The notes beneath the pieces were generated by a model. The model was not told where the DNA came from and searched no databases. It saw only the letters and a list, made by a program, of their open reading frames with translations. Below are positions 5,555 through 29,983 of a stretch of 31,361 bases of DNA, piece after piece. The DNA is from an uncultured virus (IMG/VR IMGVR_UViG_3300030103_004079) (lineage: Duplodnaviria > Heunggongvirae > Uroviricota > Caudoviricetes): the IMG/VR virus record IMGVR_UViG_3300030103_004079; one strand, given 5' to 3'. A program made the translations under genes and the position numbers. The stretch's first letter is position 1; each line of letters begins with the position of its first letter.

Positions 5555-5782
5555 TCAAAATGGAATATTTTCTTTCTTACCCCTACGCTTTTGTGGGGGT
5601 AAGATAACATCGGGAACATCATTAGATGCTCTTATTGCTTTATGAGTTGTGTCCGGTGGTAGTCCACCAACAGAAAAATCACGATTCTTTGTAACCTTTC
5701 TAGTTTCATTTGCATTCTGTGTCTTTACTTTCGCTAATTCTTTCTTTAGTCTAATCTCTTTCTGTCTATTATCTTCTGTCAT
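5555..5782 (-). CDS. Small basic hypothetical protein (75 aa)
   Basis: TAATG-coupled to the portal stop; GAGGAGG RBS. Confidence 0.75.
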   Translation of the reverse strand: MTEDNRQKEIRLKKELAKVKTQNANETRKVTKNRDFSVGGLPPDTTHKAIRASNDVPDVILPPQKRRGKKENIPF

Positions 5783-7428
5783 TAACCTGTCCTCCTCTCA
5801 CTTCTTCTATCTACATTTTGATTACCTGCGTCTTCCGGTAATCCGCTTAATCTTTTATCCGGCCCTGTACTCATAGAAGGTTTATTTCTAGTAGCGGGTG
5901 GGTTTTCTTGTGGCTTACTACCGCCACTTTCTGCAAACATTCTTGTTTGTTCATCTAAGTCTCTTTGGTCTAAATTAGAACCTGCTAGTGGGTCTTTTTC
6001 TATGGGTTTTCCATCTTCTCCCATCTTCTGCCCCTCTTCTTGTGGTTCGGGTTTTTTGTAAGTAAAGTTACCGTCTTCATCCATATCAACTTCAAATCCT
6101 AGATTCTTAATAGAACCTGCAATACCGACTTCTAATTCTTTCTTTCTTAGCCCTGCTATTTCATCTTCTTCTTCACTTGGAGGAAGTTTCAATACCCAAT
6201 CAGTGATTCCAAATTGCTTTACAAGATAAGGAAATACATAACTATTGTAAACATTCTGTGCCATTTGAACTGCTCTATTAGTTACAAGAATCTGCATACC
6301 TTCATTGTTAAGTCCACCGCTTGTAGTGTTATCAGCCATGAAGACCTTACTTACTCCATAAAATGCCGATATTCTATCTCTTAAATCATCCTTAACAGAA
6401 ATATAATCCATTTCTTTTAGGCTATCCATAAACTTAATCCACTCAACAGCACCCTTACCACCTTCTGCTTCTATACCCATGACAGGAATAAAGTGTGGGT
6501 CTGCCTCCATCTTTTCTTTTACTCCTCTCCAAAAGGCTCTCATTGAATCCATGTTTCTAGTTTGAACGGCCAGTAATCCTCTTGGCATTCTGCTCTTAGT
6601 ATAGGCTGAATTGACATAGTTTTCCATAGCAATTAAAGTCATAATGTGATTATACAATGTAATCACAGGAGAAAAACCATAGAGTCTTGAAGGACTATAT
6701 TTACTGAAATGTAATACTTCCCCTTTAATGAAATACTGTTCATCGCCCTTTGCTCTATTAACATAGTGTATAGGCTTCAAAGGAGAACCACAAGTTTCGC
6801 AAGTATCGTGCGGTTCTGTTGAAATAACATCTCTATGGTGAACACAAGTAAATCCTTTGTTACCTTTTACGCCATCTTCATCAGCATAGATAAACATAGT
6901 AACAGGGTCGCCACGATACACTTCCTTGACACGGTGCATTCTAATTTTACCATTACCGTCTAAGAAATATTCCTTAACCATAACTATGTATGCGTCATCC
7001 ATAATATTCAAATCATCCTCTAGTTCTTTTAAGACATCAATAAACAATTGCTCGGATGAATTTACATATCCCTCTAAAAACTTTTCAGCATATTCTAATT
7101 GTTTAACATCGGGTATTTTTAAATCAGTAGAGCCACATCTTGAACATTCTTGAACAGGTCTTGTGTGGGTTTTTCCGCAATTATTACACTTTGCTTCAAA
7201 TGCTTTTTCCCAAACATAGCCTCTCCTGTAGACTTCCTGTTTCAATTGAGTTATACAAGTTCTAACAATAACTGATTGTTGAACCATAGAATAGATGATG
7301 GGGGCAGTCATCATGTAGTTATTTTGCCTTTCTTGAATACCCATGTTGTAAATATTCCTATCGGCAGGTTTTGGTGTAGTACGCCTGAAAAGATTTGTGA
7401 AAGAGAACCGTCTTCGTTTTTCTGCCAT
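5782..7428 (-). CDS. Portal protein with Cys/His Zn-ribbon-like insertions (548 aa)
   Basis: Portal-like segments 'GEVLHFSKYSPSRLYGFSPVITL', 'MPRGLL', 'RDRISAFYGVSKVFM'; CNNC..CSRC and CVHH..CETC insertions; same strand and module as the terminase. Confidence 0.85.
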   Translation of the reverse strand: MAEKRRRFSFTNLFRRTTPKPADRNIYNMGIQERQNNYMMTAPIIYSMVQQSVIVRTCITQLKQEVYRRGYVWEKAFEAKCNNCGKTHTRPVQECSRCGSTDLKIPDVKQLEYAEKFLEGYVNSSEQLFIDVLKELEDDLNIMDDAYIVMVKEYFLDGNGKIRMHRVKEVYRGDPVTMFIYADEDGVKGNKGFTCVHHRDVISTEPHDTCETCGSPLKPIHYVNRAKGDEQYFIKGEVLHFSKYSPSRLYGFSPVITLYNHIMTLIAMENYVNSAYTKSRMPRGLLAVQTRNMDSMRAFWRGVKEKMEADPHFIPVMGIEAEGGKGAVEWIKFMDSLKEMDYISVKDDLRDRISAFYGVSKVFMADNTTSGGLNNEGMQILVTNRAVQMAQNVYNSYVFPYLVKQFGITDWVLKLPPSEEEDEIAGLRKKELEVGIAGSIKNLGFEVDMDEDGNFTYKKPEPQEEGQKMGEDGKPIEKDPLAGSNLDQRDLDEQTRMFAESGGSKPQENPPATRNKPSMSTGPDKRLSGLPEDAGNQNVDRRSERRTG

Positions 7429-8985: not shown

Positions 8986-9332
8986 CTTGTAAATCCCCTG
9001 CCTCTACTTCTCTTTAGTTTTTTCTTTGCTTTAGTCTTTTTCTTTTGTTCATTAATGAAAGTCCTATAAATACCTGCTTCGGAAGTTTTGCCCATTTCTC
9101 TTGCTCTTTGTTCCATAGCAATAGCCGCCTGTGTTTTATGAGCATGGCTTCTGTTACTTCTTTTTATCTTTGCTACCGAGCGTTTAGCCGTTTTTACATC
9201 TTTAAATCCTAAACCCTGTATTGTTCCTTTAGGGTTTTCATCTGTGTATAAATCTGAATGTTTTTTTGAGTTAGCGGGCTGACCTTTTTTTCTAGGTATT
9301 CTTGGTGCTTTTAGAATATCTTGCCACATCAT
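8982..9332 (-). CDS. Basic hypothetical protein with MWQDILK tag and 'KHSDLYTDENPKGTI..AMEQRA' domain (116 aa)
   Basis: ORF track; 4-nt overlaps; domain recalled from aquatic viruses (unverified). Confidence 0.8.
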   Translation of the reverse strand: MMWQDILKAPRIPRKKGQPANSKKHSDLYTDENPKGTIQGLGFKDVKTAKRSVAKIKRSNRSHAHKTQAAIAMEQRAREMGKTSEAGIYRTFINEQKKKTKAKKKLKRSRGRGFTR

Positions 9333-10023: not shown

Positions 10024-11874
10024 TCACATCTTATCTATTAAGTAAGCAACATGGTGGCTTAATTTGTCATCGGGGTATTCTTTCAATTCATCAATAGTAA
10101 TCCACTTGTAATCGCTATGCTCAAACGATAAAGTAGGATTCCAGTCATCTTCTACTTCTATTCTAAAACAATGATATTTCTTTGGTGGTTTCATGTCCCT
10201 ATCAAAATGAACTCCTAATTTAGATGATGGTTTTTTCTTTAATCCTAACTCTTCACCTGCTTCAATCATACAGACTTTTTCTGCATCGGGAGTTCCATCG
10301 GCGTTAAACTCGTCAAGTTCTTCTACCTTACCTCCGGCAAATTCCCACATTCCTATCATAGTATCTTCTTCGGGAGAACGCTGAACAATCAAAACTTTAT
10401 CTCCTTTGAAAACTGCCGCACCTGCCGCATGTCTAACACCATCTTTATCCAATAAGAATTTCTTTTTGTTGTTTCCTTTAGCATACCAAGAAAGTCCTTT
10501 GTCTTCCATTTCATCTTCTTTGATAATAACTCCACCAATGTTTTCCATACTATCCATTATAGACATCTTACAGTTGTCTTTGTATTTCTGTATATTGTCA
10601 AGGTATATTCCCTCTTTCAACCAATCAAACCCTACATGGTCTTTATGGTTCTCCCACTTCATTAACTTGAATATCTCATCACATCTTTCCTTATACCAAT
10701 CTTGTTTTTTGTAGGATTTTTTCATTCGTATAAGTTCCATAAGTAATTTAGCATTACCTTTCTTTAATCTAAAGTGTGGTAAGCACTTTTCTAATAAGCC
10801 ATAAACATCATCTTGAGAATAAAAATTTAATCTTTGAACCGGCCTAGTTTGTTGCGGGGATTTTTGATTTAAATGTAACTTACCGAAACCTATGCTCTTG
10901 TGCATCTCTTCCATAAATGCCCTTCCTCTTTCTCCTGTAGCAATTAACCCTACTCTTGGATTGTGGTTTCTGTCCATTGTAATATAACCATCCGAATCAA
11001 TAAAAGCCGCAGTATAAGCCCAAATATTTTTCTTAAGCATTGTTGGTAATTTATAATATGCTCCATCAACATTAGCAACATCTAACTTCTTTACCATTTT
11101 AGAAATCATATTTGTTGTCGTGCTTTTATGCAAAGTGTTTGGCATTCTATCGTGAATTTGTTTAGCACCAATAGAAGGACTCTTAATAATTTCACTTTCA
11201 ATAAAAGAAAGTATTCTTTCTTTCTTGCTTTTAGTAATGGACTGGTCACTAATGTTTTTTATTTGTTTTTTGTAATCTCTTTTAGCAATACGGCATTCTT
11301 TTTCTAGTTGAGCATATTCTTTAGAATAAACCATGTCTGTCTTATTCAAATCACATTCCCAATACTTACAAATGGCATCAATAATATCTCTTCTAGCATT
11401 GACACTACTAATTTTATTTATTTTCATCAAATCTTTTTCACTAAAACCCATCTTAAGTATTGCAGGTTTGTATGGCTTAATCCAATAAATAGAATCTATG
11501 CATTTATTGATATGGTCGGAGTAGCCGTCAATAACAGTATCAATAGCCTTAGTCATTCTAGTTCTTTGCTCTCCCTTTAATTTCCTTCTAGCCTTTCTCA
11601 TTTTCTTCACAAGGTCGGGAATGTTTTCTCCATCAATAGAATATTCACTAGGGAAAGAACTCAATTGTTTTCTAGCATCACTAGCGTTAATGTTTAGATT
11701 CTTAGAAAGTAAGTTTACTGCTTCATAATCGGACATAATGTAGTCATTAACAGAAGCCAGTTTAGTTCCTAATGCTTCCTCCACTTCATCCTTAGTATTT
11801 TCCTGTTCTTCCTCAAGTTCAGCAAGCCTAGCCATGTTTTGCGAACCTTGTCTATACTCTTCTGCTGTTGGCAT
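10024..11874 (-). CDS. Fusion protein: helical N-terminus + LAGLIDADG endonuclease-like domain + C-terminal Nudix hydrolase (616 aa)
   Basis: 'WAYTAAFIDSDGYI' LAGLIDADG helix and 'LLEKCLPHFRLKK'; Nudix signature 'VLIVQRS..MWEFAGGKVE...EAGEELG..EHSDYKWI'; AGGTGA RBS. Confidence 0.8.
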   Translation of the reverse strand: MPTAEEYRQGSQNMARLAELEEEQENTKDEVEEALGTKLASVNDYIMSDYEAVNLLSKNLNINASDARKQLSSFPSEYSIDGENIPDLVKKMRKARRKLKGEQRTRMTKAIDTVIDGYSDHINKCIDSIYWIKPYKPAILKMGFSEKDLMKINKISSVNARRDIIDAICKYWECDLNKTDMVYSKEYAQLEKECRIAKRDYKKQIKNISDQSITKSKKERILSFIESEIIKSPSIGAKQIHDRMPNTLHKSTTTNMISKMVKKLDVANVDGAYYKLPTMLKKNIWAYTAAFIDSDGYITMDRNHNPRVGLIATGERGRAFMEEMHKSIGFGKLHLNQKSPQQTRPVQRLNFYSQDDVYGLLEKCLPHFRLKKGNAKLLMELIRMKKSYKKQDWYKERCDEIFKLMKWENHKDHVGFDWLKEGIYLDNIQKYKDNCKMSIMDSMENIGGVIIKEDEMEDKGLSWYAKGNNKKKFLLDKDGVRHAAGAAVFKGDKVLIVQRSPEEDTMIGMWEFAGGKVEELDEFNADGTPDAEKVCMIEAGEELGLKKKPSSKLGVHFDRDMKPPKKYHCFRIEVEDDWNPTLSFEHSDYKWITIDELKEYPDDKLSHHVAYLIDKM

Positions 11875-11884
11875 TTATATCACC

Positions 11885-13327
11885 TTAAAAATTAATTCCC
11901 ATAACTCCTTGAGAGCGTTTATACTTGTTAACCTTTGGCGGGTCAAATAATCCCATGTCATCTAAGAGTATGAATGTTTCACTCATTGTATGAGTAGCGG
12001 CATTAGCCAATGCTAAACTCATAACCATGTCATCATGCGCCCCTATTCCCTCAAACTTCCCTTTGTCTGTAATAGCAAACATAGATAGTTCTTCTATCAA
12101 AGTAGAGGTAACTCTACGACTTTCTTCATTAGCGTAAGGTAATATTATCTTACCGTTTTCAAAGTTCATTTGTAAACTTAGAATAATCTCTTCTTTCTTT
12201 TTTCTAGTAGTGTTAAAGTCGTGAACATTTAAGTCTGTAACATTTCTAATCTCTTGTGTAAATGATTTAGCAAATGTATTTGTTTCAAATAATATTGCTT
12301 CGGGTTGAAACACTTTACCAATCAACTTTACTTTCTGTATGTTTTCTCTAAACTCTACATTCTTAGAACGGTCAATAAACACAATAGTTTTATTATCATT
12401 CTCATCAACTTCTAATACAGTAATTACATTGTAATCTCCATCAGTAGAAATAGCAGGGTCAATACCAACATAATATTTGTAGCCCTCTCTACGCATTGGT
12501 TTCAAAACATGGTCTTTACTCTTAGCCGCTTCCAAATATTCGGGATTAAACAAAGAAGTTCCAGTTGATATAGGAACACACATATATTCTCTTGTAAACA
12601 TAAGAGAACCGACTTCAGCCTTTCTTGCCATAAGAGCATCATAATCCCACCTACTAGGCCATAGGGGTTCATTGAGAGCGTTAAGACAAGGGTAGGTTCT
12701 AAGAGTATATGCGGGGTTCTCGGAGAGTTGTTGGTAAATATCTGTATAACTAAATGGAGTTCCAATAACTCTTAGAGAAGCAGTATGGTGAAGTGTTGGT
12801 ATCATGTCACCATAAAACCAATCTGTAACCTTTTGAATTCCTGTCATACTAAACTCTTTCAAAGGGTCGTCAATGATAATCTCTTGAGGGTGAAGTCCAC
12901 GAATCTGTGAACCGACAGAACGCTCTAAGATTTGATTACCATTAGTAAGTGTAATATTTCCTATCGCCCATCCCTTAGCAGGTTTGAATTTTTTAAGCAT
13001 AGGGTGATTGAATAGTTTATCTATATCTCTCATGTGAACCAAAGTCTGCTTTTGGTTAGAAGAAATGTATAGCATTTGATATGGTGGCTCTCTAAAAATT
13101 AAATTCCACACAACCCAACTGTGCATAAAGACAGATTTACCGTGACCTCTTGAACAAATGATAACAGTTCTTTGAGTATCGTTCATTAACTCTAACCACT
13201 CTTGTTGATGAGTTGCGAACTCCCAACCCAAGACATTTTGAAAGAAATATGGAAATGAGTTTTTAGATAACTCCATATCCATTTGATGCTCAAAATTAAA
13301 ACTATCTAAATCCATATTATCACCCAA
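11885..13327 (-). CDS. terL: Terminase large subunit (480 aa; start may be MDLDS)
   Basis: Walker A 'CSRGHGKS', 'IRG..IIIDD' Walker B, 'IGTP' coupling motif, RNase H-like nuclease 'GIDPA..DY' and 'HDDMVMSLALA'. Confidence 0.93.
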   Translation of the reverse strand: MGDNMDLDSFNFEHQMDMELSKNSFPYFFQNVLGWEFATHQQEWLELMNDTQRTVIICSRGHGKSVFMHSWVVWNLIFREPPYQMLYISSNQKQTLVHMRDIDKLFNHPMLKKFKPAKGWAIGNITLTNGNQILERSVGSQIRGLHPQEIIIDDPLKEFSMTGIQKVTDWFYGDMIPTLHHTASLRVIGTPFSYTDIYQQLSENPAYTLRTYPCLNALNEPLWPSRWDYDALMARKAEVGSLMFTREYMCVPISTGTSLFNPEYLEAAKSKDHVLKPMRREGYKYYVGIDPAISTDGDYNVITVLEVDENDNKTIVFIDRSKNVEFRENIQKVKLIGKVFQPEAILFETNTFAKSFTQEIRNVTDLNVHDFNTTRKKKEEIILSLQMNFENGKIILPYANEESRRVTSTLIEELSMFAITDKGKFEGIGAHDDMVMSLALANAATHTMSETFILLDDMGLFDPPKVNKYKRSQGVMGINF

Positions 13328-28235: not shown

Positions 28236-28343
28236 ATTTAGGGTTTGATGCGGCCTTCGGCCTAAATGTTTAAAGAACATTTCATCAAACCATATGGTTC
28301 ACTTTAAGAACCCAATTCATATATCTATTGGTATAGAGATAAC

Positions 28344-28685
28344 ATGCGAAAGATAACTAGAGACGCAATAAACGCACTATATGATAAAAGAGACTTCAAG
28401 CGAGGTAATACAGAAATTAAAGAAGTAATCAACTATTCTTCTGCGACTAGTTGCATGGTTATGTATTTACACGGTAATGGTATTGCCAAACTTGAGGATA
28501 ACAACTTATACATTCGTCACGCAGGATGGCAAACTAACACCACTAAAGAACGCTTGAACGGCTTGCCAAATGTCAACATTCATCAAAAGGATTTCACATG
28601 GTATCTAAATGATAGAATGTGGGAGAACGGCAACGAATGGACATGGGTTGACTGCTTATCATTGGAAGACTTTTCTTTCAATTAA
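28344..28685 (+). CDS. Cassette 6 hypothetical protein ('YLHGNGIA..GWQTNTTKERLN..QKDFTWY', 113 aa)
   Basis: ATG at +53 from the repeat; motif pattern recalled from uncharacterised aquatic phage proteins (unverified). Confidence 0.85.
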   Translation: MRKITRDAINALYDKRDFKRGNTEIKEVINYSSATSCMVMYLHGNGIAKLEDNNLYIRHAGWQTNTTKERLNGLPNVNIHQKDFTWYLNDRMWENGNEWTWVDCLSLEDFSFN

Positions 28686-28717
28686 TATGAACTAATATAG
28701 TCCGAGTGACTATAACT

Positions 28718-28756
28718 GCCTTTCTCGACCCTTCGGGGTCGGGATTGGCTTTTTTT
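28718..28756 (+). terminator. cUUCGg-capped hairpin + T-tract terminator
   Basis: CTCGACCC-TTCG-GGGTCGGG followed by GGC-T7. Confidence 0.8.
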
Positions 28757-28859
28757 GGGGTTGTGAGTAATGTATTTTATAATACTAGGAGAGTATTACT
28801 CACAACCATATGGTTCACTTTCGGAACTCGAATTATATATCGAACAAGGTATAGTAGGC

Positions 28860-29325
28860 ATGTCGGGAGTCATGAACCGGCAGGGATTGACCGAACACCC
28901 TATGAACGGGGGTAAGGTGCAATGTTCCGAGTAGTTTCGGCTTATGTGACTATGATGCTCTAATGAGTAAGTTTTCACCTCTAAGGAAAAGTCCTTGAAC
29001 CTCAAAAGGGGAGTTATTACTAGTAACTTGGATAACATTGGCAGTATGGCTCTTGAGAAAAAGAGAGCGTTCAAAGTGAGTGCGACCCAATCGTATCATA
29101 CTTGAAGATACCCAACTCTTCATCCCATCCCATTCCAATGGCTATTAGTGGCCATAACACCATTGAGAAACAAAGGTGAAAGTCAAATCGTAAATGTAAG
29201 GCGGTCGAATATGCATGACAGGGTGCAAAATGAAGAATACTAGTTGTCCTTCAATCACTCCCCTCGATTCAAGCATCACGCATTCACTGGATTTGAACGA
29301 GTAGCCGGAGTTTCTCAATTTTTTT
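28860..29325 (+). ncRNA. Cassette 7 candidate large structured ncRNA (~400-460 nt)
   Basis: Promoter-driven, no plus-strand ORF of 60 aa or more starting downstream of the promoter; nested long-range helices and many local hairpins; ends with a hairpin and T-tract. Confidence 0.7.
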
Positions 29326-29473
29326 ATTGAGGTTTGGCATCGTTATTATTACTTTACTGGTAGTAATGCCAAACCATATGGTTCACTTTGAGAACTTGAT
29401 TCTTATACTATTAGACTAGTAGTAGTCGCTTCGCAGGGTATGAAGTAAACTTACAAACATCGGAGAGATAAAT

Positions 29474-29983
29474 ATGATGGAATATAGTAAATTAATTAGC
29501 AAAACAAACGATATATTGGCTTGGCTTGAAGTAAATGATGCCGGCGCACTTGAAGGCGCAATTAGAGGTATCATTACTGTTGCTCAAGTTGAAGGACAGA
29601 CAGAAAAACAATACGGTAACTATTGGGGTAGTATTCGCCAAATGTGCGGCAACCTCCCAAACTCACCAATCCGCAAAGGAACACAACCGTCTATACCTGC
29701 CGAAGCGTTAGCGTGTGTGGATTCTGTAGTGACTCAAGTGCAAACTGCTTTTGCGGGTATTACTGAAAGCAACGAACTAATTCTTGAAGTAGTTTTACCT
29801 TTTAGAAATACAACCGGAAAAGGTTTTGAGTCTATGGATGAACTTGCTGCATATATGGCAGGTCGAGCAAGAGACGCATTAGTCAAGGCTCACAAAGATG
29901 GCCGTTGGGATGGTACTCTCAACGATGGACTAACAGGTATGACTCCCCCTCAACCTGCATCAAAGAAGGAGGATAGCGAGTAA
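29474..29983 (+). CDS. Cassette 8 hypothetical protein, paralog of 27628..28104 (169 aa)
   Basis: GGAG RBS; shared motifs YWGSIRQMCGNLPNSPIRKG and DGRWDGTL. Confidence 0.85.
   Translation: MMEYSKLISKTNDILAWLEVNDAGALEGAIRGIITVAQVEGQTEKQYGNYWGSIRQMCGNLPNSPIRKGTQPSIPAEALACVDSVVTQVQTAFAGITESNELILEVVLPFRNTTGKGFESMDELAAYMAGRARDALVKAHKDGRWDGTLNDGLTGMTPPQPASKKEDSE

Follow-up and report, generated by a model that had tools for sequence, protein, structure and literature searches.

The 31,361-nucleotide (nt) stretch of DNA analysed here (the window) comes from an uncultured virus of the Caudoviricetes (IMG/VR record IMGVR_UViG_3300030103_004079). It contains a block of large minus-strand genes, with the portal at 5782–7428 and the large terminase at 11885–13327, and, from ca. 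25.6 kb onward, a plus-strand array of small cassettes. One of these cassettes, bounded by a promoter-associated box at 28806 and ending before the next box at 29374, was proposed in an earlier note to carry a structured non-coding RNA (ncRNA) instead of a gene. The proposal was borne out, with no frame open across relatives and with covariation in the helices. We consider it probable that the cassette is a free-standing structured ncRNA gene of ~460 nt, made up of two domains, a manA-type RNA and an undescribed 3′-terminal piece. One half of the RNA enlarges on a known class and is unusual in standing alone, and the other half is new. The features are listed in Table 1; G001–G006 denote related virus records, and L-numbers denote related viral or metagenome loci.

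Table 1. Features of the RNA cassette and its borders in the window
Feature	Position	Strand	Basis
Junction hairpin of the cassette array, inverted repeat GGTTGTGAGTAAT...ATTACTCACAACC, abuts the promoter box	28759..28807	+	read from sequence
Promoter-associated conserved box CCATATGGTTCACTTT	28806..28821	+	pattern count in the window
TTATATATC, TATA box (archaeal reading) or −10-like element (bacterial reading)	28833..28841	+	read from sequence
5′ domain, expanded manA-type RNA, helices P1–P6 of the Rfam model plus 59-nt and 40-nt insertions	28861..29131	+	Rfam alignment, covariation, RNA-library contigs
Junction ATTCCA, conserved start of the 3′ domain	29132..29137	+	alignment of 31 sequences
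Hairpin H1, ATGGCTA TTAG TGGCCAT	29138..29155	+	7 pairs, paired in 31/31
Closing helix Hc, 5′ strand ATTGAGAAAC, pairs with 29310–29319	29162..29171	+	8–10 bp, near-invariant
H2 5′ strand GGT (pairs with GCC, 29304–29306), then GAAA of the loop-E-like internal loop	29175..29181	+	minimum free energy folds, anchor counts
H3 5′ strand GTCAAATC, pairs with 29290–29298	29182..29189	+	anchor-based pair counts
Hairpin Hv, stem TGAAG/CTTCA around loop AATACTAGTTGTC	29231..29253	+	anchor-based comparison
H3 3′ strand GATTTGAAC, then GAGTA (loop-E-like 3′ strand), GCC (H2), GGA	29290..29309	+	anchors, minimum free energy folds
Hc 3′ strand GTTTCTCAAT into T7 (29319–29325), likely transcript end	29310..29325	+	read from sequence
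Junction hairpin and promoter box of the next cassette	29331..29389	+	sequence and box scan

A permissive Rfam scan of positions 28600–29500 (901 nt) against 4227 families matched the 5′ part of the RNA to the manA model (RF01745) with 47.5 bits and an E-value of 6.3e-11, over model positions 1–192 of 192; the other seven rows of the scan had E-values of 1.1 or more. At gathering threshold, a scan of the whole window gave 0 matches. The two insertions of the 5′ domain stand where the model has 12 and 15 positions, respectively. Copies in relatives scored 49.5 (L233) and 46.4 bits (L246), and the more distant L217 and L218 scored 28.3 and 25.8 bits. Of the manA sequence blocks, the window has UAAGG, but GUAGUU and AACUC; a GUGGUG loop is present in L242, L246, L217, and L218, and a UAAUCC loop in L217 and L218.

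The model helices, together with five insertion hairpins, were tested for covariation on a MAFFT alignment of seven copies. Paired cells made up 83.3%, versus 40–50% when the partners were slid. Fifteen of the 68 pairs were altered on both sides, and the covariation score was reached by 0/500 shuffles. Both-side changes affected all five pairs of P4 (AAUGUU/AACAUU, AUUGAC/GUUAAU, CUUCUUAA/UUAGAAG) and four of the five pairs of insertion hairpin I2c. As judged from the sequence comparison, the 5′ domain either belongs to the manA RNA class, in expanded form, or is closely related to it. It does not lie in a 5′ untranslated region (UTR) but is followed by a second RNA domain, the T7 run, a junction hairpin, and a new promoter box.

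The weaker manA-type matches belong to G005 (L217 1400–1860, minus strand) and G006 (L218 1516–1770, plus strand). In G005, whose layout was read, a box precedes a manA-type RNA enlarged by an insertion of 90 nt; a 3′ piece of another kind (~110 nt), which contains a long hairpin (CAGCGAGAGAG/CTCTCTCGCTG), comes next, and then a T8 run and the following box.

Copies of the 3′ domain (29132–29319) were collected with two-anchor pattern scans. The scan of viral contigs found six loci, of which five were true (L223 is a GC-rich chance match), and the scan of metagenome contigs found 42, of which 38 were kept after L231, L236, L237, and L251 had been dropped as unalignable. Including the window and duplicates, the set comprised 44 loci with 31 distinct sequences, all of them marine viral or metagenome. 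Scans of viral contigs with 14-mers returned at least 120 and 82 stretches; 80 of the at least 120 were examined, and an nhmmer profile applied to the stretches examined revealed one new true copy, L067.

Rfam had nothing over 29132–29318 at E ≤ 10 besides a 24-nt chance row to CRISPR-DR45 (E 9.4). GOLLD, ROOL, HEARO, ribozymes, and tRNA-like families had no match in Rfam 15, where no family beyond manA reached E < 1 and the sole ribozyme row was Hairpin-meta2 (8 bits, E 9.9). ARAGORN found no tRNA or transfer-messenger RNA, a distant-mode blastn search of 28690–29470 against 50,697 phage records gave no match, and no mention of the 3′ domain was found in the papers searched. The 3′ domain is, by these comparisons, a predicted conserved 190-base RNA domain of no described family, modestly sampled. 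The "new class" proposed in the earlier note therefore has to be divided: the first 271 nt can be aligned with the Rfam manA model over its entire length, but the 3′ domain is without an Rfam match.

At the start of the 3′ domain, ATTCC (alignment columns 3–7) is invariant in 31/31 sequences although the upstream DNA differs; other modules in relatives begin with ATTCATGG. One pair of H1, a hairpin that lies partly within the search pattern, alternates between C-G (11 sequences) and U-G (20 sequences). Minimum free energy (MFE) folds of 8/8 representatives have a common nesting, which consists of Hc (AUUGAGAAAC/GUUUCUCAAU), a 3×3 purine loop, H2 (GGY/GCC), GAAA opposite GAGUA, and H3. Hc has an A-U pair changed to U-G in L263 and its last pair broken in L255. 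GAAA (29178–29181) and GAGUA (29299–29303) face each other between H2 and H3, the 3′ strand being fixed by the search pattern, to which CGAGTAGCCGG also belonged (its invariance is by construction). GGCGAAAGUC is found in 30/31 sequences, and the window has GGUGAAAGUC. We take the AGUA/GAA arrangement to resemble the loop-E (sarcin-ricin) motif.

Counting from the anchors, standard pairs were found in 184 of 186 cells of H3 (CAAAUC/GAUUUG in the window), compared with 19–88 of 186 when the strands were slid by 1–3 positions. Position 3 of this helix is AU in 20 sequences, GC in 10, and GU in 1, and position 4 is UA in 14, GC in 10, and AU in 7. The loop of Hv, AAUACUAGUU, is near-invariant (28/31 sequences) and includes a 6-nt palindrome, ACTAGT (29239–29244). 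The stems around it are of at least five unrelated sequences (CUAA/UUAG, UGAAG/CUUCA, GGUAUCG/UGAUACC, GUCAUAC/GUAUGAC, UGCGAG/CUCGUA, and AGUGAAG/CUUCACU), with a mean length of 5.4 bp versus 3.3 bp for shuffled flanks; a 4-bp stem by itself is insignificant, as it is reached by 39% of shuffles. The U-G pairs (20/31 in H1 and 12/31 at H3 position 5) imply that only the plus strand is structured in this way. Comparison thus shows a predicted fold in which Hc, H2, and H3 stack into a rod with purine-rich internal loops, and a variable inner part presents AAUACUAGUU. Kissing of the window's insertion-hairpin loop UUACUAG with the Hv loop was considered and dropped; the insertion loop differs in L233, L242, and L217.

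The two domains come apart in relatives. G001, the closest of the virus records, has 90% identity to the window over 28690–28847 and 85% over 29132–29470, and positions 28848–29131 are replaced by 177 unrelated nt; the break coincides with the manA match in the window. An RF01745 search in G001 gave no candidate, consistent with the replaced 5′ module there. In L013, the manA-type domain of the window is followed by a 3′ domain of a different subtype. The 34 distinct contexts upstream of the 3′ domain include at least seven further 5′ partners. (Clustering these contexts by single linkage was tried and rejected; all of them merged via shared promoter cassettes.) A box, 119–481 nt free of open reading frames (ORFs), and then the 3′ domain are found in 28/44 loci. 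In 14/44 loci an ORF of at least 50 amino acids (aa) ends 0–182 nt upstream of the 3′ domain with no box between (the stop codon abuts the domain in L230), and the remaining two loci have too little flanking DNA to be classified. A T run (at least four T) follows the 3′ domain in 43/44 loci, and the next promoter box is at most 200 nt away in 38/44. The genes downstream belong to at least five unrelated families, none of them constant, and G001–G004 have one copy of the domain per genome. Because of these varied upstream and downstream contexts, the 3′ domain would be an element that stays constant at the end of transcription units of several kinds, neither manA-specific nor the leader of one gene. 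Comparison of the loci shows that the predicted RNA consists of two autonomous, exchangeable domains joined at AUUCC.

Besides the manA-type module, the ORF-free stretches of the related loci contain another common one (seen in G001 and L225, among others) and no fewer than five additional types; rows of two or three modules occur in places. The modules are each closed by their own stem (for example, GGAGTAT...ATACTCC, GGGTTGTTCGAC...GTTGAACAACCC, GGAGGAG...CTCCTCC, and GGGAGCATAGCGA...TCGTTATGCTCCC) and are linked by ATTCATGG-like linkers; modules other than manA had no Rfam match in the loci scanned. The second module, present at L225 1060–1250 (minus strand), at L002 1660–1830 (plus strand), and in L226, L234, L235, L248, L253, L255, and L261, starts with GGCNAC..TTCGG..GGTNCGG, ends with GAGGTGACGACCTCTTAANCTGCAC, and replaces the manA-type domain before the 3′ domain. 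Further module sets occur in L246, L252, L254, L256, L259, and L264; in L239, L244, L250, L253, and L263; in L226, L234, and L255; in L014, L245, and L247; and in L227, L249, L250, L260, and L265.

The structure put forward in the earlier note, a single large fold held by nested long-range helices with two possible pseudoknots, did not survive the comparison, although its reading of the letters was accurate. All 16 strings of its eight long-range and pseudoknot pairs were correctly located, seven pairs match as reverse complements without exception, the eighth (TTGACCG/CGGTCGA) forms 7/7 standard pairs with one G-U, and the ten local hairpin strings are all present. Perfect 6-mer complementary pairs are modestly enriched, at 42 versus 26.8 ± 6.6 in mononucleotide shuffles, with 2.7% of shuffles reaching 42. 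Relatives, however, lose the pairings that would bridge the two halves (five helices and one pseudoknot): GTCATG/CATGAC has 2/6 pairs left in L013 and 1/6 in L242, the pseudoknot CACCC/GGGTG has 0/5 and 1/5, and the TTTCACCT/AGGTGAAA pairing depends on a T unique to the window among the 31 sequences. Cross-half pairings decay because the 5′ partners exchange and because the 3′ domain follows ORFs in some loci. The local hairpins fared better. AGTATG/CATACT, GAAGA/TCTTC, and CCGA/TCGG match helices of the manA model; GCTCT/AGAGC is an insertion hairpin kept in 5/7 aligned sequences; and TGGCTA/TGGCCA is H1. GAACA/TGTTC, in contrast, contradicts the pairing of the manA model and has only 2/5 pairs in 4/7 sequences. 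Covariation among homologs was seen as compensatory changes in both domains.

The exclusion of coding capacity also held, with no shared stop-free frame and no Pfam match for five local ORFs. Across the 31 sequences of the 3′ domain, the longest stop-free stretch is 26–67 codons long, and its strand and frame vary. Single-nucleotide, frame-breaking indels are found despite conservation over 44 loci. An antisense stop-free stretch of 56–80 codons is kept in five close copies of the 5′ domain. The short ORF described in the earlier note is real: reading from the ATG at 28860 gives 24 sense codons before a TAG at 28932–28934, in a frame shared with the ORF at 28770..28934. A second 24-codon ORF (ATG...TAG, 29230–29304, plus strand) lies inside the 3′ domain and spans the Hv hairpin; its ATG is missing in the G001 and L013 subtypes, so this ORF is not conserved.

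Several points weigh against a two-domain structured RNA. The expected gain in folding energy over dinucleotide shuffles showed no strong margin: the z-score was −1.38 for the plus strand of the whole region (9/100 shuffles fold as well), −1.86 for the 5′ part (11/200 shuffles as good), and −1.31 for the 3′ part (23/200 shuffles as good); the minus strand of the region had z +0.22. The case is weak by folding energy and not weak by covariation. The manA gathering cut-off of 55.2 bits is unmet by every copy, the best score being 49.5. The L013 copy, near-identical to that of the window with 9 additional nt in one hairpin, scores 17.7 bits over a partial length and is unlisted in the Rfam scan at E ≤ 0.01; the Rfam alignment is, therefore, fragile. 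The structure used in the covariation test of the 5′ domain was taken from the window's own alignment, and the seven sequences represent ~3 lineages. In the case of the 3′ domain, the search patterns fix 21 bases, so that diversity is under-sampled and these bases are constant simply because they were searched for. Since Hc, H1, and H2 barely vary, they give no covariation test. H3 and Hv were missed by RNAalifold on the 31 MAFFT-aligned sequences and were counted from fixed anchors, separately from RNAalifold. The RNAalifold alternative pairs the invariant loop with AAC.AGUA, both sides being invariant, and the H1 loop, the Hv loop, and GAGUAGCC are three conserved, mutually complementary segments whose alternative pairings compete.

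To the same side belongs the nature of the RNA-library data, which are assembled contigs only and reveal neither where a transcript starts or ends nor its strand or level; the libraries may contain DNA, and breaks at the domain junction may be assembly branch points created by module shuffling. The manA-type domain is covered by contigs from three studies (28919–29084 at 100% identity, 28902–29129, 28871–29127, and 28884–29034), and the 3′ domain by one 166-nt contig (29134–29300). In two runs, depth was 62 and 42 over the manA-type domain versus 5.9 and 5.2 over the neighbouring gene; a module common to several strains gathers extra contig depth. Gaps in cover, over 28300–28675 in four runs and over 29146–29239 in three, carry no weight. 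As evidence of expression, the contigs are weak hints.

The class to which the 5′ domain is related was first described, from 5′ UTRs of genes of T4-like cyanophages and of marine origin, as a candidate riboswitch (Weinberg 2010, PMC2864571). The whole cassette might accordingly be a cis-regulatory leader, in which a manA-type aptamer is followed by the 3′ domain and T run as expression platform, and the 169-aa gene at 29474 is regulated by read-through. The closure of the 3′ domain with a helix and a T run would agree with such a leader, as would the presence of an ORF of the 169-aa family in 17 of the 38 loci that have a downstream ORF. We nevertheless regard a leader as very unlikely. A separate junction hairpin and promoter box precede the gene at 29474, with a box likewise following the 3′ domain in 38/44 loci, and in L009 it follows another cassette that has no RNA unit. 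The 3′ domain stands after unrelated 5′ modules and, in 14/44 loci, after ORFs. Neither a conserved switch helix nor a conserved alternative pairing of the aptamer with a terminator or ribosome binding site, which would identify a riboswitch, was found, and the pairings between the halves decay in relatives. Another view of the same transcript, possible though unlikely, is that it is a polycistronic precursor, cut at AUUC into two stable RNAs with separate jobs, with arrays of 2–4 modules cut likewise. Closed-stem modules linked by ATTC(C)A(A)TGG are what a precursor of this kind would look like. Contigs of two studies stop at 29127–29129, the 166-nt contig begins at 29134, and the depths of the two domains differ in run X2 (10–108 versus 7.8). 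Contig ends may, however, be assembly branch points, since co-occurring strains differ in neighbouring modules, and RNAs cannot be ranked by the depth of their contigs. The Rfam scans brought up neither a ribozyme family nor a nuclease site.

It is also conceivable, if improbable, that the RNA is a protein decoy or sponge, with the purine-rich internal loops and invariant loop of the 3′ domain binding an RNA-binding protein of the host or the virus, and with valency added by the manA-type domain. The occurrence of invariant single-stranded or non-Watson–Crick elements (GGCGAAAGUC and AAUACUAGUU) beside covarying helices would suit a protein ligand, and loop-E motifs, to which we liken AGUA/GAA, often bind proteins. 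RNA–RNA tertiary or intermolecular contacts would fit these elements equally well, no partner protein was identified, and no adjacent gene is constant. Finally, the region could lack an RNA function altogether and be a decayed gene or a spacer whose complementarity arose by chance. The modest folding z-scores (−1.3 to −1.9) and the antisense stop-free stretch in close copies of the 5′ domain are what this explanation has to offer. Compensatory changes in several helices of both domains, the manA match at E 6e-11, conservation over 44 loci with frame-breaking indels, and the lack of a Pfam match make it hardly credible.

A free-standing ncRNA gene with two domains remains our preferred explanation. 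The RNA would be read from the plus strand via the cassette's own promoter, with a start within 28848–28862 and an end in the T7 run at 29319–29325. The 3′ domain would act as a constant 3′ end piece of RNA-module arrays and mRNAs, and could mark, protect, or release transcript 3′ ends. The 5′ domain would be a folded, possibly self-assembling RNA and not a riboswitch for the downstream gene.

Multi-domain, stand-alone, virus-borne RNAs with a conserved and a variable part and with E-loop-like internal loops are known in GOLLD and ROOL. The two-domain RNA of the window has these traits in common with them; unlike them, it is much shorter, has no Rfam match to either, and has domains that are demonstrably exchangeable. 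The 3′ end of transcription units is also where the intrinsic terminators and 3′-UTR-derived RNAs of bacteria are located. The 3′ domain likewise ends a transcription unit before a T run, after RNA modules or ORFs, but its Hc helix is, unlike an intrinsic terminator, AU-rich, 10 bp long, and encloses 138 nt. A terminator scan did not call the 3′ domain and called four others in the array. Since ordinary terminator hairpins with a 15-bp GC-rich stem and T7 exist in the same array (26623, 27439, and 30737), a conserved 190-nt domain exceeds the needs of termination.

Compared with manA RF01745, the 5′ domain is similar in that the six model helices and the multi-stem junction fit 28861–29131, in its UAAGG block, in the marine virus setting, and in the GUGGUG and UAAUCC loops of its relatives. 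It differs in scoring below the gathering cut-off, in its length (271 nt versus a 192-position model), and in having insertions that form their own covarying hairpins. It also differs in lying outside a 5′ UTR, fused to a second RNA domain that ends at a T run, and in its carrier, which is a virus of ~80–96 kb with magrovirus-like gene content and not a T4-like cyanophage. In cyanophage S-CREM1, manA is located beside wcaG and abiF within 1 kb (PMC9964418). A preprint of 2026, which appeared after manA had been an orphan riboswitch candidate for fifteen years, describes manA RNAs of <200 nt that form decamers, octamers, and a 60-mer cage in vitro via kissing loops and GNRA contacts (10.64898/2026.07.01.735769). 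As far as that report can be compared, the 5′ domain is of the same class, and the peripheral helices, on which assembly depends in the preprint, differ and are enlarged. A free-standing manA-type RNA with a promoter of its own before it and a T run behind, fused to a second domain, argues against a 5′-UTR switch in this lineage. One may go further and imagine RNA-only particles or scaffolds built from interchangeable domains, in which the manA-type domain would be an oligomerising core, the 3′ domain would be a universal connector whose palindromic ACUAGU loop pairs copies or docks them to other tagged transcripts, and the AUUC joints would serve shuffling or release by evolution and perhaps by a nuclease, in viruses probably of Marine Group II archaea; we offer this as a rather improbable speculation. 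The loci provide natural two-domain constructs for assembly experiments. What is new is a 3′ domain without an Rfam family, with which RNA arrays as well as mRNAs of ocean viruses end, and at least six further conserved ORF-free modules without an Rfam match in related loci.

The relatives are virus records of 78–96 kb. Three of five (G001, G003, and G005) have a family-B DNA polymerase split in two frames ~1.3–1.8 kb apart, and four of five (G002–G005) have a Cpn60-type chaperonin gene, both of which are published traits of group B magroviruses (Philosof 2017, PMC5434244). The first half of the polymerase is closest to Halorubrum tailed viruses (25.7%, E 2e-22), with T4-like cyanophages barely behind (25.1%, E 2e-20). 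Counting against an archaeal host, Pfam PCNA_N and DNA_primase_S were found in 0/5 records each, and MCM gave one weak sub-cut-off match in five; a gene of the Kyanoviridae Gp96 family lies upstream of the RNA cassette, and the array contains bacterial-looking hairpin and T-run terminators. A tblastn search with TerL gave just distant bacterial-phage matches (≤28.5% identity), and an ESM Atlas look-up of a structural ORF gave only unnamed viral clusters below 0.9. On balance, the gene content suggests that the host is probably archaeal, of Marine Group II. Non-coding RNA and manA are not mentioned in the accessible portions of the published magrovirus descriptions that were searched, and no paper joining magrovirus with an RNA term was among the matches listed. 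If the carriers are archaeal viruses, the manA class would extend beyond bacteria and their phages.

The box CCATATGGTTCACTTT (16 nt, at most three mismatches) occurs in ten copies in the window, versus 0.56 expected, and nine of the ten are on the plus strand between 25642 and 30200. Each box is preceded by an inverted repeat and followed by a TATA-rich element. The inverted repeat of the RNA cassette is also present in G001 and L009, and it pairs as a hairpin within a chance mir-5470 alignment of the permissive Rfam scan. Of the full promoter seen in the earlier note, the promoter-like box and the TATA-rich element are indeed located upstream of the RNA; the promoter type (TATA box or −35/−10) can be suggested from the sequence, and a σ70 scan found TTCACT-N16/17-TATACT at 4/9 boxes, and not at the box of the RNA cassette.

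The nine cassettes of the array each carry a small payload and are often closed by a 14–15-bp hairpin and T7, as at the three ordinary terminators given above. Relatives have the same cassettes in a different order: in L014 the 169-aa gene is before the RNA unit and a Gp96-like gene after it, and in L009 the RNA unit is absent at the corresponding position. The gene upstream of the RNA cassette (28344–28685, plus strand) matches Pfam Kyano_Gp96 (E 1e-20) and phrog_554; the family takes its name from T4-like cyanophages, which are the classic carriers of manA RNA. Within the first 25 kb of the window, the sole megablast match to cultured phages is at 9074–9299, where Prochlorococcus phage P-TIM68 has a hypothetical gene of 75% identity. 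A 616-aa ORF (10024–11874, minus strand) combines HNH endonuclease-like residues 286–404 with NUDIX hydrolase-like residues 472–604.

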